This document shows, one piece after another, positions 9,163-45,644 of a stretch of 64,000 bases of DNA. A program made the position numbers and the translations under genes. The notes under the pieces are model-generated. The model was not told the origin of the DNA, searched no databases, and was given only the letters and a program-made list of their open reading frames with translations. This stretch comes from a virus (taxonomy: Duplodnaviria; Heunggongvirae; Uroviricota; Caudoviricetes), in the IMG/VR virus record IMGVR_UViG_3300011339_000564, positions 14,318-78,317 of that record; one strand, written 5' to 3'. Numbering within the stretch: the stretch's first letter is position 1; each line of letters opens with the position of its first letter.

Positions 9163-9942
9163 ATGCGTTTTACAGAAATATCAGAATCTACAACATCAGG
9201 CTCAGTATCTACTGTAGCAATGCCACTAGGCAAAACTCAAACACGTACTCAAGTATCTGGTTTAGAACCCGTGAAAAAAGTAATGGGCGGCACTGCTAAG
9301 AAAAAAGGTCCATATGGAAATAGTCTTACTGAAGGTGCTATGAAGCAACTTTCAATGGATCTTAAAGAGTTAAAAGACGAAGAATTCAAAAAGAAATATA
9401 ATATGACTAAGCAGGAAGCCCGTACTGAATTATCTGCAAAGCCTGAACCCATCAAAGAAGCAGAACTATCTGAAGATGATATCATATTAGTTCCAGGACA
9501 GGGACGCAAAATGAAAACTGGATTTGTACCGCATGGTCAAAGTCGTGTAGACCATGAAGTAGAAATGGCACGTAGTGATTTATTCAGTGCGGCAAAGAAC
9601 GCTAAACAAGTATATGAAATGATTCATAGTGTATCTGAAGATGAGGGTCTTGAGGGCTGGGTACAAGAAAAGATTATCAAAGCCAACGACTACCTAAATA
9701 CAGTACGTGAATACTTAGAAGGTAAACAAATTCAACAAGAAGCTAGTAGTCTTACATATGAAGGTAAGATTGACTTTGCCAAAAAGATACAAAAGAATGT
9801 AGATAAGAGTAACAAAGCAGTAGTAAAGACTAGAAAAGAAGTTGGTGCAAGAATTGCTGATATTGGTGCAGGCGGCAAAGAACACAATGTTAAAACTGAC
9901 AAAGCGTGGGACGATGCACAAAAAGCAAAGAAAGCAAAATAA
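9163..9942 (+). CDS. Hypothetical protein with a CTS-like N-terminus (candidate capsid-internal protein)
   Basis: N-terminus MRFTEISES. Charged and low in complexity. 259 aa. Confidence 0.55.
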   Translation: MRFTEISESTTSGSVSTVAMPLGKTQTRTQVSGLEPVKKVMGGTAKKKGPYGNSLTEGAMKQLSMDLKELKDEEFKKKYNMTKQEARTELSAKPEPIKEAELSEDDIILVPGQGRKMKTGFVPHGQSRVDHEVEMARSDLFSAAKNAKQVYEMIHSVSEDEGLEGWVQEKIIKANDYLNTVREYLEGKQIQQEASSLTYEGKIDFAKKIQKNVDKSNKAVVKTRKEVGARIADIGAGGKEHNVKTDKAWDDAQKAKKAK

Positions 9943-9943
9943 A

Positions 9944-12900
9944 ATGAGCAATATTCTACAAGGCTTAAACGAAACACAAAAACATGACGGTGTATTCTTG
10001 TTAACAGAATCTCGTACATACAAGTTATGGGAGAGTGCTGGACAAAAGATTAGTGAAGCACAACTAACTGCCGATCAGATTAATCAAATCTTTAAACAAG
10101 TTGAACAAGGTGCTACTGCCGCAGGTGGTAATCGTACAATGCTCGGTAAAGGTAAAGACGCAGCCGGCGCAGTAAAGCAAGCATATGATGATTTGGTGAG
10201 TAAAGCACAGAACTCAGGACCTATTAAAGGTGTTGATGCGATGTACGACAAAGCCGCCGAAAAATTAAAACAAGCAACTGGTGGCGATCAGGGTGTAATG
10301 AAATATGTACAGAAATATCGTGACTTTGCTAAAGAACACCCAGTAGCACAAGGTTTAATATATTCAGCATTAATTGCAGCCGCTGGTATCAGTGGTGCAG
10401 GTATTGGTGGTGCAGCCGCACTAGGTTTGTTTAAGATGGTAGACAAATTGTTACAGGGTGAGAAGTTTAGTACTGCTGTAGGTAAAGGCGTAACTACTGG
10501 TGCAATGGCTTATGGTGCAAGTAAAGTTGGTGATCTTTTCAAAGGTTCACCGCAAGGCGCACCTACTACTGCTGGATCAGACGCTACCGCAGGTGCGGCA
10601 CAAGATACATTGTCTGCGACTAGACAAGCAGTGGAAAAAGAAGCTATGGATGCCATTAAGTCTAGAATTGCCAATGGAGAAATAGCACCCGGCGATCAAG
10701 GTGCCATACGATATTTGGCATACAAAATGCTAGCTGGATCATGTATGCCGCCGCCGTCTATAGAAACTTCTGTAGAAAAATTAATAACACGATCTATGGG
10801 TGATGTAGGAACTAGCGCAACTAATACAGTGTCCGGCACATTGTCAGGTGTTACCGGAGAACAGATGGCTAGTCATCCTGCATACCAAGCAATGATTCAA
10901 AAGTTTGGCAATACACCCGGCGCTCGTCAGGCGGCTATGGCTGCTGCCAAGTCAGCAATTCTTAAGGGACAAGTCAATGAAAGTATCAATTTATCAGAAT
11001 CTCAAATCTTTCTATTGATAGGTAAGATTGTTGAACGTCAACGTAAACTTGACGAAGGCATCATGGATACACTTAAAGGCGCCGCAGGTAAAGCCGCCGA
11101 TTGGGCACAAACTAAAGGAACTAATTTAACAACTAAAGTTACTGCTGACAAATTATTACAAGCGTGGAAGAAAGCTGGTAGTCCAACAGATAGTTTAGAT
11201 GTTGCAAGCATTATTCAAAAAGCTGGTGTACCATCTGATTCAATCAAACAAGTATACACTACAATGCAAATACCTTTTGCAGGTGAAAAAGGTGCAGGTG
11301 CGAGTACAAAACGTAATATAGATGTTGATCCATCAAGTGTTGCACCAGCCGCTCCAACAAGTACACCCACTGCTTCTGCACCGTCAGCTACAGCAAATGC
11401 GCCGGCGGCAGATGCATCACAGCCTGCTACGGCCGCAACTGGCTCTTTAGCACAAGCACAAGAACTCATTGCAAAATTAGATCCAGAAACTAAAACAAAA
11501 CTTATATCAACATTGAAACAAGAGTTGAGTGTAGCTGAAAGTCGAATCAATGAATTATCTAATGAAAAATTAGGACAATACAAAAAAGCCGCAAGTGCTG
11601 ACGCTACTGCCGCTGACAAAGCAGGTGACTATAAGCGTGGTGATAAACGTTTCAGTGGTATTGTTCGTGCAACTAACAAACAGTTTGCTAATGATACTAA
11701 AAAACATGGTCAGCAAGGTGTGGCGGAAGGCTTAGAGCAATCATTATCGTCAATGGTAAGACAAGATCAGACTGAGCGGAATGAGTATGCAACCTTTGTA
11801 AAATCACAAGCAGGTGGTGATTGGTCCAAAGGGGCTAAAATGTATGCTCAACTCAAAAAAAGACCCATCGATGATATATTTGGTGATGCAATAAGATTAA
11901 ACCAGTTTATGAAAATGAAGTTTGATTTTGATAAATTTACCAATGAAGATTGGGACAATTATTGGTTGTTAGCACAGCATTGTGATAATAATCGTGACTT
12001 TCAAAAGAATGCTTTATCAATAATTAAAAAATATCAAGGTACAGATCATTCGCACTACAAATATCTATACGATAGAATCAGTATGGGTCTAACTGGTAAA
12101 CAGAAATACGGAACACAGAATATTAAAGAGCAAGGCGTGGCAGAAGGCTTCCCTCATGATGTTGACCATATGCCGGGTCCTGTGATTCGCAATGCTGATA
12201 TGACTACAGATAATGTCAAGACCAAAGACAAAGCAGAATGGGACAGAGCCACTGATAGCATCAACGCACGGGTGTTTGATGATATGAGTGAATTTCGCAC
12301 TGACAACAACGGTGAAACAGTTGTCGGTGATAGCGCAGTTTGGGCCAAGTGGGACAATGCTACACAAACAGGTTGGTTCAATGCCAAAGGTCGCCCATTA
12401 AAGCCTTGGCCTGTTAAAGAGCAAGGTGTGGCGGAAGGTGATGGGCCAAGATATATTGATAACATAATGAACCAGTATAAGGCAGGCTTGCCTGGCCAAA
12501 ACCCGGCGGCCTTATCTAAACCAACTAGAGCAGTTGATGCCAGAGGTCGCACACAAGAACAATGGGCACAATTAGTTAGGAGCAAGTTTCCGGGTGCTAA
12601 AATTACACAGGCTAAAATGATTGACGGGCCTATGCAAGCAACCTTACCTGATGGTAGAAAACTTGGATGGAAAAAAGTTGAACAAATTGATGAAATTATT
12701 GATCCTAGCACAAAGATGGCATGGGCATTACGCCACATCGCCGGGTTCCTTACTAGATTATTTCCTTACGCAGTGGGCGCCGGAACTTTGTGGGCAGCCA
12801 GTGGACTGTTGGCCCCACTAGTGGCTGCATCCGGTGGAGTGGCCGCGGCAATTTCTGCATTAGGCGGTTCAATGGGATCAGCTACAGGCGCGGCTGCAGG

Positions 12901-13795
12901 AGCAGTTGGCGGTGCCAGTATAATGCAAATTATTAAAAACTTATTTGCCGCAGACGAGAATAGTATACAAGCAGGAATTAAAAAGTGGGTAGAAAGACAA
13001 GTAGGTGACGAAGCCGATGTACAAGAATTTTTACTAACTCATGCCAAAGCCGCATATGACGGTAAACCTGGTTTCCGTTGGAGGGCTAAAGAGTGGCCTG
13101 TTAAATTAAGTAAAGATCAAGCAGAAGCATATTTAGAAAAGAAAGATAAATCTTGGCTTGATTATGAAAAGCAAAAAATAATCGATGCTGAAAAAGCGAA
13201 GGCTGAAAAAGATAAAGAAGGTATGATGGAAGAACAACTTGATGAACTAAATTGCTGGTCAGGTTACCATAGAGTTGCCGGCACTAAAGCAGGCTTTCCA
13301 GGTAGTTGTGCTAAAAATAAAACAAATGAATCAGAACATAAATGCCCACATTGCGGTGGCGAGATGGTTAGTGAAGAACTAATGAATGAAAAGAAAGATG
13401 CTTGCTACTATAAAGTAAAGAGCCGTTATAAAGTATGGCCAAGTGCTTATGCTAGTGGTGCGTTAGTTAAGTGCCGTAAGAGTGGTGCTGATAGCTGGGG
13501 CAACGGTGGAAAGAAGAATGAAGGTTCTATACTAGAAGGTATTAACCGAGCAGACGAAAGTTTGCATGATTGGTTTAATAAAGAAAAGTGGGTTCGCATG
13601 GATACTAAAGGAAAGATTAAAGGTCCGTGTGCTAGAGAACCAGGAGAAGGTAAACCTAAATGTTTACCTCAAGCAAAGGCACATAGTTTAGGCAAAAAAG
13701 GTCGTGCAAGCGCGGCTGCTAGAAAACGCAGAGAAGATCCCAATCCAGAACGTAGTGGTAAAGCCATCAATGTTAATACTAAAAAGAAAGACTAA
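9944..13795 (+). CDS. Giant modular protein (1283 aa), candidate virion-internal or ejection polyprotein
   Basis: Start set at the ATG at 9944, 1 nt after the upstream stop (the track start at 9842 overlaps the upstream gene). It has three QGVAEG motifs, an EGMMEEQLDELN motif, G/A-rich hydrophobic segments, an Ala/Pro/Thr low-complexity linker, and a Cys-rich basic C-terminus (CPHCGG...). Confidence 0.7.
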   Translation: MSNILQGLNETQKHDGVFLLTESRTYKLWESAGQKISEAQLTADQINQIFKQVEQGATAAGGNRTMLGKGKDAAGAVKQAYDDLVSKAQNSGPIKGVDAMYDKAAEKLKQATGGDQGVMKYVQKYRDFAKEHPVAQGLIYSALIAAAGISGAGIGGAAALGLFKMVDKLLQGEKFSTAVGKGVTTGAMAYGASKVGDLFKGSPQGAPTTAGSDATAGAAQDTLSATRQAVEKEAMDAIKSRIANGEIAPGDQGAIRYLAYKMLAGSCMPPPSIETSVEKLITRSMGDVGTSATNTVSGTLSGVTGEQMASHPAYQAMIQKFGNTPGARQAAMAAAKSAILKGQVNESINLSESQIFLLIGKIVERQRKLDEGIMDTLKGAAGKAADWAQTKGTNLTTKVTADKLLQAWKKAGSPTDSLDVASIIQKAGVPSDSIKQVYTTMQIPFAGEKGAGASTKRNIDVDPSSVAPAAPTSTPTASAPSATANAPAADASQPATAATGSLAQAQELIAKLDPETKTKLISTLKQELSVAESRINELSNEKLGQYKKAASADATAADKAGDYKRGDKRFSGIVRATNKQFANDTKKHGQQGVAEGLEQSLSSMVRQDQTERNEYATFVKSQAGGDWSKGAKMYAQLKKRPIDDIFGDAIRLNQFMKMKFDFDKFTNEDWDNYWLLAQHCDNNRDFQKNALSIIKKYQGTDHSHYKYLYDRISMGLTGKQKYGTQNIKEQGVAEGFPHDVDHMPGPVIRNADMTTDNVKTKDKAEWDRATDSINARVFDDMSEFRTDNNGETVVGDSAVWAKWDNATQTGWFNAKGRPLKPWPVKEQGVAEGDGPRYIDNIMNQYKAGLPGQNPAALSKPTRAVDARGRTQEQWAQLVRSKFPGAKITQAKMIDGPMQATLPDGRKLGWKKVEQIDEIIDPSTKMAWALRHIAGFLTRLFPYAVGAGTLWAASGLLAPLVAASGGVAAAISALGGSMGSATGAAAGAVGGASIMQIIKNLFAADENSIQAGIKKWVERQVGDEADVQEFLLTHAKAAYDGKPGFRWRAKEWPVKLSKDQAEAYLEKKDKSWLDYEKQKIIDAEKAKAEKDKEGMMEEQLDELNCWSGYHRVAGTKAGFPGSCAKNKTNESEHKCPHCGGEMVSEELMNEKKDACYYKVKSRYKVWPSAYASGALVKCRKSGADSWGNGGKKNEGSILEGINRADESLHDWFNKEKWVRMDTKGKIKGPCAREPGEGKPKCLPQAKAHSLGKKGRASAAARKRREDPNPERSGKAINVNTKKKD
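11714..11731 (+). repeat. Copy of the dispersed motif CAAGGTGTGGCGGAAGGC (QGVAEG)
   Basis: Contains the exact 16-mer core AAGGTGTGGCGGAAGG. Confidence 0.85.
12131..12148 (+). repeat. Copy of the dispersed motif (CAAGGCGTGGCAGAAGGC, QGVAEG)
   Basis: Two synonymous mismatches to the core. Shares the extended TTAAAGAGCAAGG context with the copy at 12422. Confidence 0.8.
12422..12439 (+). repeat. Copy of the dispersed motif CAAGGTGTGGCGGAAGGT (QGVAEG)
   Basis: Contains the exact 16-mer core. Confidence 0.85.
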
Positions 13796-14245: not shown

Positions 14246-15515
14246 ATTAGAATTTACCCAGAAAGAATGGGAAAAGATAGAAAATAACGGGACTTATTGT
14301 CCCGGTTTATTTAACAGCAAATACATAGAAACTGACGGTGGACTGAGAGCATGTTGTGTTCAAGATTTAAAAGGTGAACATTATACAAATACAGAATCCT
14401 ATAACACCACTTCGTTAAAACAAGCCAGACAAAATTCATTATCAGGGATTAAAGATTCCAGTTGCGCTAGATGTTGGGAAAATGAATCATTAAACACCAG
14501 ATCATATAGACAAGGTCTAGTAGAGTCTGCTATTCACTGGAAAAGTAAAATCAAAGATAATATAAATGTTGACTATTCCATCACAGAACCCACCATAGAC
14601 TACTTAGACATTAGATTTGATAATATCTGTAATTTAAGATGTAGATATTGCAGTACTATTTTTAGTTCTAGTTGGAGACACGAAACTGAGTTACTAGAAA
14701 AAGAATTACCAATATTTAAATATATAAAAAGAAGATCAGTAGATACAAAAATATTGAATAGTGTAACCGATATTGACACGATATTAGCTGACCTTAGAAC
14801 AGTTAAAAAAATATTTTTTGCGGGTGGCGAGCCATTAGTAAACGATAAACATTATGAAGTGTTAGAATATCTAATAGATAATAATAGAACCAACATTGAA
14901 ATAACGTATAATACTAATTTTACAAACATTAAAAAAGTTATTCCTTATTGGAAAAAGTTTTCAAACATACACGTGGGTGCAAGTTTAGATGCAAATTATA
15001 AAAGAGGAGAATACATTCGTAAAAATCTCGTATGGGACCAGATTGTAGAAAATAGAAAATTAATGATTGCCGAAGTTCCTCATGTTCAATTTGAAATAAA
15101 TGCGTCAATGAGTATATTGAATGCGTATAATGTAGTAGATTTTCATAAAGAATGGATTAATGATAAATTAATTGGACCTTTTGATTTAACTGCATGGAAT
15201 TTTGTATCTAAACCTGAACATTATGATATTAGGAATTTACCTGACCATCATAAGATTAAATTAAAAGAAATATATCAAACTCATATTGATTGGTTAAACT
15301 CCCTCACATCAGGCAATGATATTAAGTTTAAAAGTAAAAATGATTCTAGTTTTGCTATTCAATCATATCAAGGTATAATTAATAGGTTAAATTTAAGTAG
15401 AAATTCATCTTTTGACAAATTTTGGGAATTTGACAAATGGTTAGATAATAATAGAGATGAAAACTTTTTTGATGTGTTTCCTGAGTATGAGGACTTTGCT
15501 AGATATTTTAGCTAA
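14238..15515 (+). CDS. Radical SAM enzyme with an N-terminal Cys-rich (SPASM/twitch-like) segment
   Basis: CNLRCRYC is a CxxxCxxC motif. An N-terminal YCPGLFNSKYIETDGGLRACC...SCARCW resembles a SPASM-type auxiliary cluster motif. GTG start overlapping the dps stop. Confidence 0.7.
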   Translation: MSKLEFTQKEWEKIENNGTYCPGLFNSKYIETDGGLRACCVQDLKGEHYTNTESYNTTSLKQARQNSLSGIKDSSCARCWENESLNTRSYRQGLVESAIHWKSKIKDNINVDYSITEPTIDYLDIRFDNICNLRCRYCSTIFSSSWRHETELLEKELPIFKYIKRRSVDTKILNSVTDIDTILADLRTVKKIFFAGGEPLVNDKHYEVLEYLIDNNRTNIEITYNTNFTNIKKVIPYWKKFSNIHVGASLDANYKRGEYIRKNLVWDQIVENRKLMIAEVPHVQFEINASMSILNAYNVVDFHKEWINDKLIGPFDLTAWNFVSKPEHYDIRNLPDHHKIKLKEIYQTHIDWLNSLTSGNDIKFKSKNDSSFAIQSYQGIINRLNLSRNSSFDKFWEFDKWLDNNRDENFFDVFPEYEDFARYFS

Positions 15516-38945: not shown

Positions 38946-39125
38946 ATGTATGAATTAAGATATCTTGTCCGAAACGGTTGGGATGGACCTGAACAAGTGT
39001 TACAATATAGAACTCAACATGAAGTAACAGACTATAGTGGCACAGATCCTAAAACAGGTGGATTCATTAGAAAAATAGAATGGACTGAATGGAAGTATGT
39101 CCCCACCGTAGATGAAACAAAATGA
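38946..39125 (+). CDS. Small hypothetical protein (59 aa, below the track cutoff)
   Basis: MYELRYLVRNGWDGPEQVLQYRTQHE... The stop overlaps the ATG at 39122 (ATGA). Confidence 0.45.
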   Translation: MYELRYLVRNGWDGPEQVLQYRTQHEVTDYSGTDPKTGGFIRKIEWTEWKYVPTVDETK

Positions 39126-40471
39126 AATTATACGATAAACGAATTGCTTTTTTGATTAGTGACCAACATTTTATACCGCATGGTGGTATAGGTAGTTTTG
39201 CTAAAGGCTTTACTGAGATGTGTGGTCGTATCGGGTGGAAGGTTGATATTATATTAGACAAAGCACCTACTAATTTATTCAGTGATTTAATTATTAGTCT
39301 AGGTGCTAACATTGTTTACCCTGATGAACCACTACGATACAGTGACCATACTGCTACGTTTGCATTTAGCGATACTATCAACTTTGAAAAGATTATCAAC
39401 TTCCGTAAAGCAATATTAAAAGCATTTGAAACAAATGTATACGACATGATTGTGTGTAATACACAAGAGGCAATGACTGCTAGTTATGCCATGACGGTTA
39501 ACAAGTATATACCTGTTGTATTCTATACTCATTTGCACAGTATGATTTTTCGTGAAAGTCAAGGTAGTGATGTATTTTTAGACAGCTATCACAATTTCTA
39601 TAACAAACATATGGAGTTTACTGATATCATTATAGGCACACAAAGTCAAAAGAACATTGACGAACTAACTAAGTTTGGTGCAACTAACTGTCAGTTATTG
39701 CGTATGCCAATGAGTGAACGTGGTCTATTAGAACGATACAATGGATCTAAGAAGGGTGTACTATTCATTGGACGATGGGAAGAAGGTAAGAACCCTGAAG
39801 CATATATTCGTGTAATGAAAGAATGTAAATTACCATGTAAGGTAATGACAAATAGTAACGGTGCAAAAAAGTTTGAGAAGGCATTCAGTGACGCAGGTAT
39901 TACTGATTATGAAATCAAAGCCGGTATTACTGGACAAGAGAAAGTAGATTTTGTTCGTGGTGCTAATGTATTCTTTATGCCCAGCCTTCGTGAAAACTAT
40001 CCATTTGCATTTTTAGAATGTCTTGGTCATATGCCTTGTGTTGTGCTTGATAATCAAGATTGGTCAGACAACTTTGAGCGAGAATACTATCATCAAGTTT
40101 CAATTGGTTCAGCAGCCGACATGATTAAAACATTGTATGGCACAAATCAATTATCTTCAGTATTAGACTATGTGAAACAATTAGATGATGAGGTAGCTCA
40201 AGGTTGGATTACATTCTTAGATAATTTTGCAGGCAAGCGTAGCAACACAAATGCCGCAAAGATTAATACATATGATACAGTTAAGTATAGTGATTATATC
40301 AAGGATTTAAATCGTACACATTTAGCACGTGAGGACTTTGAAAGCGTACTCGCAAACAAATATAAGTTTTTAAATGTCTGCTACACAGATAGTGACACTT
40401 ACCTAAGCAAAGACCCAACATATAAACCAGTCGAGGAAGAAACAGCATTAAGTCTGTTTGAAGGATTATGA
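39122..40471 (+). CDS. GT-B (GT4-like) glycosyltransferase
   Basis: HGGIGSFAKG N-terminal motif, FIGRWEEGKNP, and RENYPFAFLECLGHMPCVV (the E-x7-E region). Confidence 0.7.
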   Translation: MKLYDKRIAFLISDQHFIPHGGIGSFAKGFTEMCGRIGWKVDIILDKAPTNLFSDLIISLGANIVYPDEPLRYSDHTATFAFSDTINFEKIINFRKAILKAFETNVYDMIVCNTQEAMTASYAMTVNKYIPVVFYTHLHSMIFRESQGSDVFLDSYHNFYNKHMEFTDIIIGTQSQKNIDELTKFGATNCQLLRMPMSERGLLERYNGSKKGVLFIGRWEEGKNPEAYIRVMKECKLPCKVMTNSNGAKKFEKAFSDAGITDYEIKAGITGQEKVDFVRGANVFFMPSLRENYPFAFLECLGHMPCVVLDNQDWSDNFEREYYHQVSIGSAADMIKTLYGTNQLSSVLDYVKQLDDEVAQGWITFLDNFAGKRSNTNAAKINTYDTVKYSDYIKDLNRTHLAREDFESVLANKYKFLNVCYTDSDTYLSKDPTYKPVEEETALSLFEGL

Positions 40472-41298
40472 AAAAAGTTTTAATTACAGGTAACTCAGGT
40501 TACATTGGCAGTCATCTAAGTAAGATGTTAATGGATACAATGAAATATGAAGTTCATGGATTAGATATCCGTGACCCGCAATATGCATTGAATAGATTTT
40601 ATCGTCAAGATATCAATAGACAATTTTCATTAGATGAAGAATTTGATGCAGTCATTCACTTAGCCGCATTAGTTAATGTAGGTGAAAGTGAACAGATACC
40701 CATTCAATATTATATCACTAACTTAAATGGCACAATGAATGTCATTAACAAAGTAAAGACTAAAAACTTTATATTTGCAAGTACGGGTGCCGCAGTTGGT
40801 TGCGAAAGTGCTTATGGTATCAGTAAACGTGCCGCAGAAGATGTAGTCAAAGAATACTGCACACATCACAATAAAAAAGATTATACTATCTTTAGATTTT
40901 ATAATGTGATTGGTACTACCGTTGTTCCACCTACAAATCCAGATGGATTAATGTATAACTTAATGAAAGCACGTGAAACAGGTGAGTTTACTATCTTCGG
41001 TAATGACTATGACGTTAGTGATGACGGTACATGTGTGCGTGATTATGTACATGTGAATGAAATTTGTGACTCATTAGCACAGGCTATCGAAAAGCCTAGT
41101 AACCAAATTGAATCATTGGGTCACGGAGTGGGATGGACAGTTAAAGAGATTGTCGATGAGTTTCAAAAAGTCAATCACGTTGACTTTGAAGTAAAATACG
41201 GCCCAAGAAGAAAGGGTGATCTTGCTAGTTCTGTACTAGAAGATGTTTCACCCTATATGCGTAATCTATATACTATGGATGAGTTGCTTAAGGTTTAA
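40468..41298 (+). CDS. NAD-dependent sugar epimerase/dehydratase (GalE-like SDR)
   Basis: VLITGNSGYIGSHL Rossmann motif and the YGISKRAAE catalytic YxxxK. Confidence 0.8.
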   Translation: MKKVLITGNSGYIGSHLSKMLMDTMKYEVHGLDIRDPQYALNRFYRQDINRQFSLDEEFDAVIHLAALVNVGESEQIPIQYYITNLNGTMNVINKVKTKNFIFASTGAAVGCESAYGISKRAAEDVVKEYCTHHNKKDYTIFRFYNVIGTTVVPPTNPDGLMYNLMKARETGEFTIFGNDYDVSDDGTCVRDYVHVNEICDSLAQAIEKPSNQIESLGHGVGWTVKEIVDEFQKVNHVDFEVKYGPRRKGDLASSVLEDVSPYMRNLYTMDELLKV

Positions 41299-41299
41299 T

Positions 41300-41773
41300 T
41301 TATAGACCAATCTTGGGTGGATACATTGGGCCAGACTTTATTCGTTCACCACCGTCAAAGTAACTAATTTCTACTGGTAATTCTTTCCAGCCTAATCTAT
41401 GTGCAGCCATGATACGATGATTACCTTCGTTTACCCAGGCACTGCCATCATAGGCCACATTGATAAAAGGTTTGTATTCTTCACTAGAGTGTGAATGTAA
41501 TGGTAGCTTGCCGGTGTCCTTCATTATTTTCATAATTGCAATAAGATCACCTTGACGCACATTTTGTTGTTCGTTTCGCATACCGGGTATTTGTCTTAGT
41601 AAGTTAACAGGAATTTCAACTTTTCTGACAGTAGCAGTTGTCTTTCCCATGTAGGGCAAACCATTACGATCAGGACTTTTTTGCTTGGCATACGCAATAG
41701 CATCGTTTAGCCATTCCTCATTAGGCACATCAACACTAAGTGTTCCTTCAGTTATAAATTCTTTTGCTCTCAC
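41300..41773 (-). CDS. ParB/sulfiredoxin-fold domain protein with a CTS-like N-terminus
   Basis: N-terminus MRAKEFITEG. VEIPVNLLRQIPGMR...DGSAWVNEGNHRIMAAHRLGWKELPV matches the ParB N-terminal domain pattern (DG....eGnHR..Aa..lG). Confidence 0.5.
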   Translation of the reverse strand: MRAKEFITEGTLSVDVPNEEWLNDAIAYAKQKSPDRNGLPYMGKTTATVRKVEIPVNLLRQIPGMRNEQQNVRQGDLIAIMKIMKDTGKLPLHSHSSEEYKPFINVAYDGSAWVNEGNHRIMAAHRLGWKELPVEISYFDGGERIKSGPMYPPKIGL

Positions 41774-42444
41774 ATTGATCCTTTAGAATTAACAAACCAG
41801 GGGTCAACTATAACTAATTCTCCATTACTACGTTGCATGACATTTTCGGTGTGCAAGTCCCAACCAAATTTGTTTATTCTACCCGATTGATATAATAGTT
41901 TCATTACACTAAACAAGGTAGCATACGTCTTATAAAAAGTAACACCTTGCTGTGTCATTGCATTATCTATAAGTTTAGCCATTTTAGATGATATTGGGCT
42001 AGAGAAGAATTTCCAAGTTTCAGGATCAGTTAGTGAAGGTAAGATTTGTTGCCAAGTCTCACCTGTAACAGCATAGTCACTTAATATCCAGACCATTGCT
42101 TCTTCAACACTGTTCTTTTTAATAGGCTGAAGATGTTCCATGTCAATTTGTATGTAATCCTCACCGGCAATATCGATTGTATTCATTTCATTAAATATAG
42201 GTAAACAAGAAATCTCAGGATGATTTTCACAGAATTCGTAAAACTTTTTAAATACTTTTTCAGCGTGACCACTAGGATCATCTGGCATTAATATTTTAAT
42301 CACATGACTAGTATCTTTAGCCCATACTCTTGCATCAGCTCCGCTACCAATATGTTTGTAACCTAGTGATTTTAAATGCGCGGCAATTTCTTTGAAGGCT
42401 GGTCCTGTTGCAGCCTCATCTACTGCAAATTCATTGGCTCTCAT
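41770..42444 (-). CDS. Protein kinase-like (APH/choline kinase-like) fold protein with a CTS-like N-terminus
   Basis: N-terminus MRANEFAVDEA. IGSGADARVW (Gly loop), HVIKIL (Lys), DLHTENVM (catalytic loop) and LVIVDPW. Confidence 0.5.
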   Translation of the reverse strand: MRANEFAVDEAATGPAFKEIAAHLKSLGYKHIGSGADARVWAKDTSHVIKILMPDDPSGHAEKVFKKFYEFCENHPEISCLPIFNEMNTIDIAGEDYIQIDMEHLQPIKKNSVEEAMVWILSDYAVTGETWQQILPSLTDPETWKFFSSPISSKMAKLIDNAMTQQGVTFYKTYATLFSVMKLLYQSGRINKFGWDLHTENVMQRSNGELVIVDPWFVNSKGSM

Positions 42445-42623
42445 TTCTTGCGACCCCTAAACCCTACTGGCATCTGCAAATCATTAACGGGAAACATTGC
42501 TTTGAACCACTCATCAGTACCAGGCTTAGCAGTAATTTTGCTACGGTCTATAGGCACAGAAGATGTAGGTTTTCCTCTATGGTCGGTAACTCCTGCAAGT
42601 CTTTTAAGTTGATCTATGTTCAT
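42441..42623 (-). CDS. Small hypothetical protein
   Basis: 60 aa, MNIDQLKRLAGV..., overlap-coupled within the minus-strand operon. Confidence 0.5.
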   Translation of the reverse strand: MNIDQLKRLAGVTDHRGKPTSSVPIDRSKITAKPGTDEWFKAMFPVNDLQMPVGFRGRKK

Positions 42624-43174
42624 AGACTCTTACCCCAGCGTGTGTTAATCACATTCCAGTTGATAATCTTCCACTGTTCAGCCAAATACTTTTTCTTATC
42701 AGCACCGTAGTCTAATATCCACGCATGTTCCCACCAATCAACTAATAACAATATATCATTGCGTACTTCATGGTTCTTAATTGTTTTAATTTTACCATCA
42801 GTTGCTAAATATACCCACCCACTACCTTGTATCTTCATTGCTTCAGTTTCAAACTGTGACTTCATATTATCGTATGAGCCAAAATGTTTGTTAATAAAGC
42901 CCATCATGGGGCCGTTTGGATTGTTTTTATTTCTTACTTCACGGAACTGAGGGAACAATGTATTATGTAAGAATGCACCTGCATAGTTAAATTCTTTATC
43001 TCCGATATCTTTGTTATATCTTTCAGCATAGCCATGTGCTAACTTGCCATAGTGTAAGTCTATAGTGTCTACCGACAAAACCGGACTTAGTTCTTTTGGC
43101 TCAAAATTAAGCTGAATGATTTCTATATCTTGAGGTTTTGACTTATCCTCAAGTAACTGAATTAAATCACGCAT
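42620..43174 (-). CDS. sodB: Fe/Mn superoxide dismutase
   Basis: DTIDLHYGKLAHGY, FLHNTLF, FGSYDNMKSQF, GSGWVYL, LLLVDWWEHAWILDY and INWNVI align with SodB blocks. All four metal ligands are present. Confidence 0.8.
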   Translation of the reverse strand: MRDLIQLLEDKSKPQDIEIIQLNFEPKELSPVLSVDTIDLHYGKLAHGYAERYNKDIGDKEFNYAGAFLHNTLFPQFREVRNKNNPNGPMMGFINKHFGSYDNMKSQFETEAMKIQGSGWVYLATDGKIKTIKNHEVRNDILLLVDWWEHAWILDYGADKKKYLAEQWKIINWNVINTRWGKSL

Positions 43175-44955
43175 CAGTGTTTCAATAATAATGTAGAAAT
43201 GATGTTAGGATCGTTAGCACTGATATCACCTTCACCGGGTGCAACGATAACATTGTACTTCATACCGGCTGGTATTGATTTACGTTTAGCCATGTACTGA
43301 TTATAGTCTAATATAGAGTTGGCACTTAATCCATACTCTTTTGCAAGACGATTCTTTAGTTCAGGTAACTTATCAGGTTGTACTTGCCATTGGCCTTCTG
43401 ACCCCTTAACTAAGTTTTTCTTTTCGTCCTTAACTAATAAATCTTGGAACAAGTCATCTGGAACAATACGACTATTCTTAGTTTTATCTAAGTTAGCATC
43501 ACTTGCCTTAACTTGTTTCTCTTGTGATGTATGAGCACCTTCACTCCAATTGATAATAAAGTTAGGTGGCTTCTGACCTAATGCGGCACCAGCCATCTTT
43601 GTGTAAGCATAGAACTTAGTATCAGGATGCTTTGCAGCCATCTTTAATGCCAAGTCTAAATATTCTGGGCTGAAGAAGTCACCAGCATCATGCCAACGAA
43701 TAGTAGTTTGCCAACCTTTAGGGAATTTCTTATCACCCTTTTGACCAGCTTGTTCTTCTTTGCTAATCTCACTACTTAATTGATTGAAGAACCCGTCTGG
43801 ATCATTCAATAGATATGTTAATATTCTTCCGTCACTTTGCCATGCGTTCTTAAACTGAATTTTTCCGCCCTTCATAGCAAAACAATCTATTTTACATGAG
43901 CCTGCGCCCGGGCATGTATTAACAATGATTAGTTTATTTGTTTGTTCGTCTAGTGCAATACCAGTCAATGCCGCAAAGCCAACGTTGAAGAATTGTTCAA
44001 ACTCTCCGTTACTATGCTTCATCTTTTCGTTTTGCTTTAGTAATGATTTAGGGCGTTGTGACAATGTTTTCTTAACTGCATCCTCATCATATGTTGCACC
44101 ATCTGGACCTAAGTATTCAACTACACTACTACGGTGGATATAAGGCATTTTGTATCTATCTGTTTTTGTTTTACCAGATACATATTTTTCATTACCCTTT
44201 TTATCTACCTTAACATTACCTGCTTTGTCTGTATCAGGAGTACCAACAATACGTTTCATGTAATCTTGGAACTCATCGCCACCAAACTCACGGCTACTTG
44301 CTGGCAGTTTAGTTGCTTCTTCTAAGCCAGATAGTTTGCGAATTCTATCTAAGCCTTCCGCCACACCTTCATTTGCACTTTGACTAGCCAATTTATAAAT
44401 ATACGCAGTACCGTTGGGTAATAGATACGTAGTATAATTTCCTATACCCCTCTCACCCATTTGAGCCTGTTGAATTGTTATCATTTTTGCGCCGCGCGGC
44501 GTTGGGCCATCATTAGGTACCAGCATACCTTTATATTCTTTGCCTCCATGGTGCACAACTATACCAGTGTCGCTTCGTTCTACTTTTTCTGCTGTATCAA
44601 CATTTTGATTTGGCATCTGACCACCAGATTTTTCTGCACTGGCTTGAAATCCTTGTTGAGCCATTTGTTGTGCGGCACTAGGTGACATTTGGCCATCAGC
44701 ACCAAGACTAACTCTTGCGTGTGCAGAGCCAGCTGACCCTAACGCACCCATTGCACCTAATGCCATTGCACCTGTTGCGGCTGCTTTTTTCCAATTAATT
44801 TCGTCAAGTTGCTCTTCCGTCATACCTTCTTCTGATTCTTCATCGGGCATATCACCCGCTTTAGTAACGAATTGCTGAGGTGTCATAATTTGGATGCCAC
44901 TAGGTGCTCCAGGCATTTTTGGCTCTACGCCTTCGAATAGTTCTTTGAAATTCAT
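43174..44955 (-). CDS. Large modular protein with a CTS-like N-terminus, an internal signal-peptide-like segment and a Cys-rich C-terminal domain
   Basis: N-terminus MNFKELFEG. EGMTEEQLDEINWKKAAATGAMALGAMGALGSAGSAHA. One NEGVAEG motif. The C-terminal TCPGAGSCKIDCFAMKG...IRWHDAGDF...YAYTK recalls the phage GP88-type domain (from memory, unverified). Confidence 0.6.
   Translation of the reverse strand: MNFKELFEGVEPKMPGAPSGIQIMTPQQFVTKAGDMPDEESEEGMTEEQLDEINWKKAAATGAMALGAMGALGSAGSAHARVSLGADGQMSPSAAQQMAQQGFQASAEKSGGQMPNQNVDTAEKVERSDTGIVVHHGGKEYKGMLVPNDGPTPRGAKMITIQQAQMGERGIGNYTTYLLPNGTAYIYKLASQSANEGVAEGLDRIRKLSGLEEATKLPASSREFGGDEFQDYMKRIVGTPDTDKAGNVKVDKKGNEKYVSGKTKTDRYKMPYIHRSSVVEYLGPDGATYDEDAVKKTLSQRPKSLLKQNEKMKHSNGEFEQFFNVGFAALTGIALDEQTNKLIIVNTCPGAGSCKIDCFAMKGGKIQFKNAWQSDGRILTYLLNDPDGFFNQLSSEISKEEQAGQKGDKKFPKGWQTTIRWHDAGDFFSPEYLDLALKMAAKHPDTKFYAYTKMAGAALGQKPPNFIINWSEGAHTSQEKQVKASDANLDKTKNSRIVPDDLFQDLLVKDEKKNLVKGSEGQWQVQPDKLPELKNRLAKEYGLSANSILDYNQYMAKRKSIPAGMKYNVIVAPGEGDISANDPNIISTLLLKH
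44353..44370 (-). repeat. Copy of the dispersed motif (reverse complement GAAGGTGTGGCGGAAGGC, EGVAEG)
   Basis: Contains the exact 16-mer core on the minus strand. Confidence 0.85.
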
Positions 44956-45644
44956 TTCTTGTGGTTCCTAATAAATTGTTCTGCTAGCATTACTAATTCT
45001 TGCATTTGCTCAATAGATTCACAATGCCATCTACGTAAACTCTTATTAATATTGCTGTTTGGATCACGTGCTGTTTTAGCACTTGTACGATGTTTCTTCA
45101 TACCGCGCATTCTAGCGCAAAAACTAGCACGGCGCTTTGCGTCCTTGCTACCCTTTTTAATCTTGCTTGGCTTTTTAGTAACTGCTGTTTGAATCTTGCT
45201 ACCAGGATGACTACGGCGATAACTACTTACAGATTTTTTACTCATCCCACCTACACGTTTGTTATTGTGCTTTGACCAATTCTCGCCTTCCGCCACACCT
45301 TGACTTAATAATTTTTTAACAGATATTGGACCTGATTGATTTTCTGCACCGGTTAAAAATTCATTTCCCCATGGGGTTATCCAACCATCAAATTCAATAT
45401 CATTGCCTTGAACCATAATATCATTATTACCATCAAGGTTTTGATATCCATTCAACTCTTTGTACCATTTTCTTAATGATTGTAACTTGTATGGACCTTT
45501 GTAGCCTTGTTTTTTCAAAATAGAAATAATTTCCGGAGTAAATCCAACTGGTTGACCCTCAGATACTTTCTCTTTTTTGCTAATAGCAATAGCGGCTTGT
45601 TGTGCTGGATTTGCGGCTTCTGTTAAAATTTCTGTTATTCTCAT
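44952..45644 (-). CDS. Hypothetical protein with a CTS-like N-terminus and a basic C-terminal domain
   Basis: N-terminus MRITEILTEAA, one SQGVAEG motif, and a basic C-terminus RRASFCARMRGMKKHR...RRWHC. Confidence 0.6.
   Translation of the reverse strand: MRITEILTEAANPAQQAAIAISKKEKVSEGQPVGFTPEIISILKKQGYKGPYKLQSLRKWYKELNGYQNLDGNNDIMVQGNDIEFDGWITPWGNEFLTGAENQSGPISVKKLLSQGVAEGENWSKHNNKRVGGMSKKSVSSYRRSHPGSKIQTAVTKKPSKIKKGSKDAKRRASFCARMRGMKKHRTSAKTARDPNSNINKSLRRWHCESIEQMQELVMLAEQFIRNHKK
45285..45302 (-). repeat. Copy of the dispersed motif (reverse complement CAAGGTGTGGCGGAAGGC, QGVAEG)
   Basis: Contains the exact 16-mer core on the minus strand. Confidence 0.85.

Follow-up and report, generated by a model that had tools for sequence, protein, structure and literature searches.

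Leader-tagged kinase and ParB/sulfiredoxin-fold proteins of an uncultured jumbo phage: candidate cargo of the phage head

Introduction

Two overlapping minus-strand genes at positions 41300-42444 of a 64,000-nucleotide (nt) stretch of DNA from an uncultured tailed phage (Caudoviricetes; IMG/VR record IMGVR_UViG_3300011339_000564, positions 14,318 to 78,317; the whole stretch is called the window here) encode a kinase-like and a ParB-like protein that begin with nearly the same residues, MRA(N/K)EF. What do these proteins do, why do they share a start, and do they work together? A first-pass annotation made from the letters and open reading frames (ORFs) proposed a dedicated two-component effector, possibly injected and acting at the very start of infection. 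On balance, comparison with homologues and with T4 and T7 favors a different arrangement: both proteins would be pre-made effectors, packaged in the head and injected, and would represent single-domain versions of the modules that elsewhere make up polyvalent proteins.

Both genes were confirmed. The kinase gene runs from 42444 to 41770 (ATG start, 224 amino acids, aa) and the ParB-like gene from 41773 to 41300 (GTG start, 157 aa), with the GTG start of the latter overlapping the TGA stop of the former (aatGTGA). The ParB N-terminal signature, the 4-nt overlap and the MRA(N/K)EF starts were all found as first described. The overlap is not special to the pair, which stands at the end of a six-gene minus-strand operon (41300-45644), flanked by plus-strand genes, in which all neighbors overlap by 1-4 nt.

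Kinase fold and kinship with T7K

The features of the kinase gene, in which a slash marks a predicted cut, are as follows.

41770..42444, minus strand: gene for a T7K-like protein kinase, 224 aa, without C-lobe or shut-off domain (ORF, PHROG 15752, AlphaFold2 (AF2) model, hhalign).
42415..42444, minus strand: leader MRANEFAVDE, predicted cleavage after E10 (VDE/A); predicted local distance difference test (pLDDT) below 50 for residues 1-9; E10 nearly invariant, A11 invariant.
42331..42351, minus strand: Gly-rich ATP loop IGSGADA; G35 and D37 invariant.
42292..42303, minus strand: VIKI with the beta3 lysine K50, invariant and aligned with VIKV of T7K.
41836..41862, minus strand: catalytic loop WDLHTENVM (D196, H198, N201), invariant; equivalent to FDMHSGNIM of T7K.
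41794..41811, minus strand: IVDPWF, with D214-P-W in place of DFG; D214, P215 and W216 invariant; ITDPV in T7K.

The motifs IGSGADA, VIKI, DLHTENVM and IVDPW, from which a protein kinase-like fold had been read, are all present on the minus strand, and the fold is borne out by the predicted structure, a fold search and the invariant residues. Across 50 homologues (down to 43% identity), G35, D37, K50, E103, D196, H198, N201 and D214-P-W-F are invariant, and the hallmarks of the superfamily (G33/G35, K50, D196, N201 at Asp+5, D214) are invariant or nearly so. The AlphaFold model (pLDDT 81.9) is bilobal, with an N-lobe of beta-sheet plus alphaC and a catalytic core; it runs from N-lobe through a helical insert to the catalytic loop and metal-binding Asp, and then ends. 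The C-terminus lies 8 residues past IVDPWF and 10 past D214, and since the chain stops after the metal-binding Asp, there is no C-lobe.

Several comparisons connect this protein to the T7 kinase gp0.7 (T7K). It matches PHROG 15752, the T7 gp0.7-type kinases, with E 3.9e-11 over residues 4-216, and a profile of its family aligns with T7 gp0.7 itself over the N-lobe only (hhalign probability 78%, E 1.7e-5). A relaxed tblastn search of 50,697 phage records gave weak matches that, among those listed (25/75 records), were almost all T7-like "protein kinase" genes, over residues 28-215; blastn and standard tblastn searches of the same records gave no kinase match. The catalytic regions are nearly superimposable (FDMHSGNIM..NGDVPYITDPV in T7K and WDLHTENVM..NGELVIVDPW here). 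In T7K, DPV (213-215) instead of DFG is a hallmark (PMC13645617); D214-P215-W216 aligns with T7K D213-P-V, the third residue being W instead of V. The two proteins thus have in common a homologous phage-encoded core, the VIK lysine, the D-[LM]-H-[ST]-x-N-[IV]-M loop, and D-P-[VW] at almost equal residue numbers, soon after which the domain ends. They differ in that the window kinase has no C-terminal shut-off/DNA-binding domain, carries a T4-like leader where T7K has none, and is encoded by a T4-superfamily jumbo phage rather than in an Autographiviridae-type early region; identity is about 22-25%. Profile and alignment evidence makes homology to T7K, as a distant relative, very probable, and the window kinase is a new branch of the T7K family, leader-tagged and without the shut-off domain. 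According to a 2026 study, many bacterial defenses are disarmed by T7K, a hyperpromiscuous Ser/Thr/Tyr kinase (PMC13645617).

A second kinship is with the kinase domains of polyvalent proteins. Pfam Kinase-PolyVal (PF18762) matches the window kinase with 18.1 bits (E 0.003), below the 27-bit gathering threshold; it was among the few weak matches in 11/11 proteins scanned (the kinase and ten homologues), the best match in 8/11, and was a precomputed match in 7/120 kinase homologues. Homologous kinase domains also occur inside proteins of 1100-1900 aa. Searches of PDB sequences with the kinase and ParB-like profiles were uninformative. The kinase of the Salmonella jumbophage Munch, which the 2026 study (PMC13645617) names among relatives of T7K, was considered as a model and rejected: it has DYG rather than DPW, is leaderless, and goes undetected by the kinase-family profile.

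A new family in the ParB/sulfiredoxin superfamily

The ParB-like gene has the following features.

41300..41773, minus strand: stand-alone gene of ParB/sulfiredoxin (Srx) fold, 157 aa, without a Pfam model (ORF, AF2, Foldseek).
41747..41773, minus strand: leader (GTG)MRAKEFITE, predicted cleavage after E9 (ITE/G); residues 1-8 with pLDDT below 50.
41555..41572, minus strand: EQQNVR, with a second acidic/basic pair, E68/R73, both invariant.
41402..41428, minus strand: EGNHRIMAA, ParB/Srx nucleotide-binding motif; E116, G117, N118, H119, R120, I121 and A124 invariant.

The AF2 model, a single 157-aa domain (pLDDT 92.6), has sulfiredoxin, Noc, ParB, PadC and SerK/SbnI as all of its top ~40 Foldseek matches (probability 0.9-1.0, E from 2e-3). 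The ParB/Srx fold first proposed is upheld by these matches, and there is little room for doubt about either fold, that of 41770-42444 or that of 41300-41773. The protein carries AYDGSAWVNEGNHRIMAAHRLG, and all 53 homologues compared keep E68, R73 and E116-G-N-H-R120 unchanged. The first-pass annotation had made the reading of both proteins depend on the conservation of the VIKI Lys, the DLH Asp and the GNHR Arg; all three are invariant in their respective families.

Within the superfamily, to which Osa also belongs, the protein has the common alpha/beta core and the GxxR nucleotide motif, to which EGNHR corresponds; the motif is GCHR in sulfiredoxin, DGxHR in SerK/SbnI, and DGVHR in SbnI itself. 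It differs in a helix and hairpin added at the N-terminus (residues 12-60), in its own E68/R73 pair, and in having no DNA-binding or dimerization domain and no Pfam match. A Pfam scan of the protein gave no matches, including to ParB_N and DdrB-like ParB (PF18763), and when family members were scanned singly, only 1/53 reached E 0.05 for ParB_N or ddrB-ParB. A profile search of 1.84 billion representatives, by comparison, recovered 1006 clusters (at 50% identity) with E<=1e-3, 249 of them with E<=1e-30, and many family members are domains in proteins of up to 4374 aa. The ParB-like protein represents a new family within the ParB/Srx superfamily, large and unannotated. Its chemistry could be that of a nuclease or nickase dependent on nucleoside triphosphates (NTPs), an NTPase, or an Srx/SerK-like phosphotransferase.

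Among the 50,697 phage records, blastn and standard tblastn gave a sole match to this protein, in Dolichospermum phage Dfl-JY45. There the domain lies inside an 1185-aa hypothetical protein (L081 11668-15225) with the leader-like start MNIVEITED, beside a 2387-aa hypothetical protein.

The N-terminal leader

The residues common to both starts belong to a leader of about 9-10 residues with the consensus M-R-A-x-E-F-I-T-E-[S/A/G], predicted to be disordered in both protein models. A start of the form M[RK]xx[ED][FILV] was present in 183/240 homologues of the kinase or ParB-like family. Under a strict pattern, ^M[RK]xx[ED][FILV]x(1-3)[ED], the leader occurred at 184/1776 gene starts in 80 kinase loci and the window and at 23/9402 internal Met, a ~42-fold enrichment. 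In the window, 4/102 genes have it, none of them a replication gene. The leader remains at the extreme N-terminus of homologues, whatever domains intervene before the kinase or ParB-like core. It is encoded by 208 distinct DNA sequences with free use of synonymous codons, which places the constraint on the peptide and not on the RNA. The leaders of the operon end in ITE/G, VDE/A, LTE/A, LFE/G and LLE/D.

T4 has a similar element. Its capsid-targeting sequence (CTS), MKTYQEFIAE (PMC8442874), carries the internal proteins, and whatever else is fused to it, into the prohead, after which it is removed by cleavage (PMC8442874; PMC5694885); the head protease gp21 cleaves after Glu in I/LxE (PMC12991175). 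The leader, MRAxEFITE, closely resembles this sequence and likewise ends in I/LxE. It also resembles the N-termini of T4 gp22 (MLKEQLIAE/A) and gp67 (MEGLIE/A), where the slash marks the end of the [LI]xE motif only and not a known cut, and that of gp24 (MAKINELLRE/S), which is cut after E10. The start of the kinase core, xxE-A-E-x-G-T, is invariant and matches the maturation site of T4 gp23, FLTE65/AEIGG, where the propeptide is 65 residues long (PMC5694885). By these likenesses, the leader appears to be a variant of the T4 capsid-targeting sequence.

The correspondence with the T4 internal proteins (IPI, IPII, IPIII), Alt and gp24 extends to the way the leader is used: a single leader of about 10 residues, ending in [LI]xE, stands on many unrelated cargo proteins (MRAKEFITE here, MKTYQEFIAE in T4), and a gp21-type protease is encoded on related contigs. 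The cargo itself is different. T4 internal proteins are small and basic, whereas the putative cargo proteins here are enzymes (kinase, ParB/Srx, superoxide dismutase (SOD), GNAT-like, nucleotidyltransferase) and multi-domain fusions, in an uncultured jumbo phage. The literature searched contained no account of such a leader outside T4-like phages or on enzyme cargo such as a kinase, nor of polyvalent-protein junctions that look like cut sites.

Two further observations concern tags of this kind. In T4-like cyanophage genes, CTS-like starts are found beside DUF6321-containing proteins, MKNFQEFQEA in Synechococcus phage S-SSM7 (L083 1402-1767) and MRSFKQFMSE in phage Sf-FS3 (L082 4360-4680), which suggests that the tag may be widely distributed among T4-like phages of marine origin. 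A second motif, [LIVM][KRQ][RK][LIM][AS]G[LIVM] ("LKRLAGV"), had 18 matches compared with 1.55 in shuffled sequences; its sites include the N-terminus of the 60-aa ORF of the operon, residue 205 of the operon's GP88 protein, and the C-terminal end of a scaffold-like protein encoded by loci L106-L109 (...VVEIKRLAGLN; L106 2014-3117). The motif may act as a second tag, one for binding to capsid or scaffold.

Domain junctions and T4-type head genes

Kinase and ParB domains were listed among the building blocks of polyvalent proteins by Iyer et al. (2017), who proposed that such proteins are delivered with phage or plasmid DNA (PMC5512222). The window proteins draw on the same vocabulary (kinase without C-lobe, ParB/Srx, GNAT, nucleotidyltransferase; Pfam Kinase-PolyVal PF18762 and DdrB-like ParB PF18763), and homologues of both lie inside proteins of 1100-4400 aa. 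They differ in being single-domain and below Pfam thresholds, and 25/26 of the giant relatives (>1000 aa) are leaderless. The word "leader" is absent from the main text of that paper (PMC5512222), so a shared N-terminal leader is apparently undescribed there; protease sites at junctions were not searched for in it. The first-pass statement that the pair is not a described module is right in part: both types of domain were already known from polyvalent proteins (PMC5512222), and the kinase has a relative in T7K (PMC13645617), while the leader-tagged stand-alone form was not found described in the literature searched.

Where the kinase is preceded by other domains, the leader's terminal motif recurs. 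At 31/34 unique internal junctions, [LIVM]xE occupies the three residues before the kinase core (PIDE/AE, GVAE/AE, NLDE/AE), compared with a background of 1.6%, and most ParB-like junctions are likewise preceded by it (ELNE/ELRVDVP, VAE/SLRVDVP). This pattern fits protease sites between modules.

A link to head genes comes from four loci (L106-L109) that were fetched solely for encoding the ParB-like protein. They hold homologues of the T4 portal protein gp20, protease gp21 (34% identity) and capsid protein gp23 (31%), and the protease retains the catalytic His85 and Ser140 of gp21. The coiled-coil scaffold-like gene of L106 is placed between its protease and capsid genes, and directly after the head genes come at least seven genes with the leader, including ParB-like and kinase-containing ones; the ParB-like gene among them begins MRAHEFIIE/SQLRFDVP... 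Among isolates, Sinorhizobium phage Phosso comes closest to the L106-L109 protease (55%), as it does to the window DNA polymerase, and the head module of Phosso itself has leader-like N-termini (MRYNEFSKE, MRASELFEF).

L106 also encodes, at 10058-12655, an 865-aa leader-tagged protein in which a Pol-beta nucleotidyltransferase-like region (recognized by eye) is joined to a T7K-like kinase and a C-terminal module, ENFADGRNPQDKGDSKRY... The ENFADGRNPQDKGDSKRY module is also found near the N-termini of other kinase or ParB-like homologues (P0041, P0046 and P0136).

Packaging in the head or action in the producing cell

Under the explanation proposed here, the products of the operon would be phage-head cargo. 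The disordered leader (M-R-A-x-E-F-I-T-E/[A/G/S]) would draw each protein into the scaffolding core of the prohead, a head protease of the T4 gp21 type would then trim it at I/L/V-x-E, and the mature enzyme would be kept in the DNA-filled head and enter the host with the DNA, before phage gene expression. One cargo would be a minimal T7K-type Ser/Thr/Tyr kinase that, by analogy with T7 gp0.7, phosphorylates host proteins including defense proteins; the other would be a stand-alone ParB/Srx-fold NTP-binding enzyme, possibly an NTP-dependent nickase or nuclease, or an Srx/SerK-like phosphotransferase. The two would be independent modules of a combinatorial effector repertoire, whose domains are elsewhere strung into polyvalent proteins. 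That the leader is a head-targeting, protease-cleaved signal, and that its bearers are hence injected, appears probable. The earlier suggestion of a targeting signal for injection is strengthened by the likeness to T4 and by the related contigs; packaging, cleavage, injection and substrates are what we infer from them.

Several observations weigh against this explanation. The operon lies amid replication, sugar and nucleotide-metabolism genes and not beside head genes; none of the latter was found in the window, so that a gp21-type protease for the window phage is inferred from relatives. When 79 other loci were chosen solely for a gp21-like protease, the strict leader was present on 8/869 genes, and neither the kinase (0) nor the ParB-like protein (0) was found in them, which indicates that the tight linkage to head genes in L106-L109 is not general. 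Contigs of those 79 loci had no name match with contigs from the kinase and ParB-like searches, so this comparison did not bring protease and cargo together on the big contigs; cargo genes usually lie elsewhere in the genome than the head module, and the window is an example. The junctions share evolutionary descent and are not statistically independent, and the EAE that precedes the kinase core, instead of being a cleavage site, could belong to the domain itself. Only two copies of the T4 late promoter TATAAATA are found in the window, compared with ~8 expected from shuffles; it is not enriched and carries no information on timing, and its scarcity implies that any late promoters of the phage differ from those of T4. 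Lastly, the Munch kinase is an early, leaderless and differently built protein, and no strict leader was found in the first 50 kb of that phage.

Some of the same observations would suit an alternative in which nothing is packaged, the leader serves translation initiation or coupling, acts as a stability tag or assists cytoplasmic assembly, and the enzymes act in the producing cell. The operon does sit among non-structural genes, T7K and the Munch kinase are ordinary early proteins without leaders, and the leader is rare near head modules generally. However, the constraint falls on the leader peptide and not on its RNA; the leader has a gp21 site at its end and is a close match to both the T4 CTS and the propeptide of gp24; that site is found again at junctions between domains inside proteins, where it can have no bearing on the start of translation; and in L106 the tagged genes come directly after those for portal, protease, scaffold and capsid. 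We consider this alternative unlikely.

A dedicated pair or two modules of one repertoire

In a second alternative the kinase and ParB-like protein would form a single dedicated effector or complex in which the ParB/Srx protein targets or regulates the kinase, for example by replacing the DNA-binding C-terminal domain of T7K. That domain directs T7K to nucleic-acid-binding proteins, and the target preference of T7K depends on it (PMC13645617); the window kinase is without one. The two families do meet repeatedly. The ParB-like family was present in 18/80 kinase loci and the kinase in 21/80 ParB-like loci, nine of the shared loci being fusions in the same ORF and others abutting genes in either order. 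Direct ParB-like-kinase tandems with linkers of ~10 aa occur in four architectures (L014, L026, L028, L041/42), and three further types of domain with an xGxHR motif of ParB type were found directly upstream of the kinase (18 DGNHR, 3 EGWHR and 2 canonical ParB_N with Pfam E 2e-5).

Against this stands how often the two are apart. Only 4/150 ParB-like representatives also have a kinase, 108/211 kinase domains stand alone, and about 25% of loci hold both. The commonest N-terminal partner of the kinase is not a ParB-like domain at all, being a DUF6934/GNAT-like domain (37 cases), and other neighbors of the kinase are about equally recurrent, such as Dps-like genes (19 loci), SOD (12 loci), and also nuclease genes. 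Partner counts were obtained by clustering the segment directly upstream of the kinase; single-linkage clustering of neighbors collapsed through shared domains. Many loci are interrelated, and part of the co-occurrence is thus shared ancestry. The linkers of the fusions look like protease sites ([LIVM]xE), such that the domains may be cut apart and fusion need not imply joint action. The DGNHR domain, moreover, aligns with the ParB-like profile over 26 columns only, at 30% probability, and its ParB nature is at the level of the motif. A dedicated two-component effector, as the first-pass annotation had it, is accordingly not well supported, and we regard it as quite unlikely; the kinase and ParB-like protein are often co-selected modules of one repertoire and not an obligate complex.

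A true partition or segregation ParB beside an aminoglycoside kinase or other small-molecule kinase, which weak PHROG matches to "ParB-like partition protein" (E 8e-4) and the presence of aminoglycoside phosphotransferases (APH) among the kinase's Foldseek matches might suggest, was considered on both counts and rejected as very improbable, because the ParB-like protein is nothing more than the N-terminal Srx-like domain, with no helix-turn-helix or dimerization domain, no Pfam ParB_N match and no ParA-like gene in the six genes of the operon or the two next to the pair, and because its domain elsewhere forms part of polyvalent proteins as long as 4374 aa.

The operon and its phage

The four genes upstream of the kinase and ParB-like genes are as follows.

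44952..45644, minus strand: DUF6321 protein, operon gene 1, 230 aa, start MRITEILTE (Pfam PF19846, E 5e-11).
43174..44955, minus strand: GP88-family protein, 593 aa, start MNFKELFE (Pfam PF17338, E 1e-23).
42620..43174, minus strand: Fe/Mn superoxide dismutase with N-terminal extension MRDLIQLLE (Pfam Sod_Fe_C, E 4e-24).
42441..42623, minus strand: 60-aa ORF, start MNIDQLKRLAGV; the gene call is repeated on independent contigs.

At least 21 contigs, drawn from several samples and sequencing projects, carry the exact kinase protein within the same six-gene arrangement, and independent gene callers give the same operon genes on them. T4-like cyanophages encode homologues of the C-terminal domain of the DUF6321 protein, and one homologue bears the annotation of a structural protein. 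The SOD (42620-43174, minus strand) has an extension of 10-17 residues, MRDLIQLLED..., that ends in LLE like the leaders, and it recurs beside the kinase in 12 related loci; an SOD packaged in a head or injected would, if true, be unusual.

The phage is large, with 37% G+C, and genes for a ClpB-like ATPase, a family B DNA polymerase of the T4 type, radical-SAM enzymes, a ligase and nucleases lie in the window. By DNA polymerase, its closest isolates are all jumbo phages whose core genes are T4-like: Sinorhizobium phage Phosso (49%), Agrobacterium phage Atu_ph07 (46%) and members of the Klebsiella RaK2/K64-1 group (44%). A glycosyltransferase-like gene and an NAD-dependent sugar epimerase gene (39122-41298, plus strand) converge on the operon, with a stop 1 nt from that of the ParB-like gene, and the same neighbors are seen on independent contigs. 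Elsewhere in the window, a leader-tagged ORF (MRFTEISE..., 9163-9942, plus strand) has a 100-nt out-of-frame overlap with a 1317-aa ORF (9842-13795, plus strand) that matches the same PHROGs (727 and 3477) as the DUF6321 protein; the arrangement may reflect a cargo protein of polyvalent type, a frameshift, or simply two genes.

Implications

A wider reading, which we hold more tentatively than the packaging of the two proteins themselves, is that uncultured T4-superfamily jumbo phages may load and inject dozens of enzyme families under a portable MRAxEFITE label with gp21-type [LIVM]xE cuts. These would include T7K-type kinases, ParB/Srx proteins, SOD, GNAT-like proteins, nucleotidyltransferases and nucleases; polyvalent proteins of this lineage would be polyproteins, cut by the head protease at their domain junctions to release single effectors, and the kinase would begin to disarm host defenses ahead of all phage transcription. 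The common leader and the cut-site-like fusion junctions would then join work on the T4 CTS and internal proteins with polyvalent-protein genomics, and the leader offers a simple sequence criterion by which injected effectors of metagenomic jumbo phages could be recognized. The ParB-like domain, for its part, accounts for ~1000 clusters at 50% identity that have neither a Pfam model nor an assigned function. In T7, T7K is made only after DNA entry; a T7K-type kinase with a head-targeting leader would instead arrive ready-made when host defenses first meet phage DNA.

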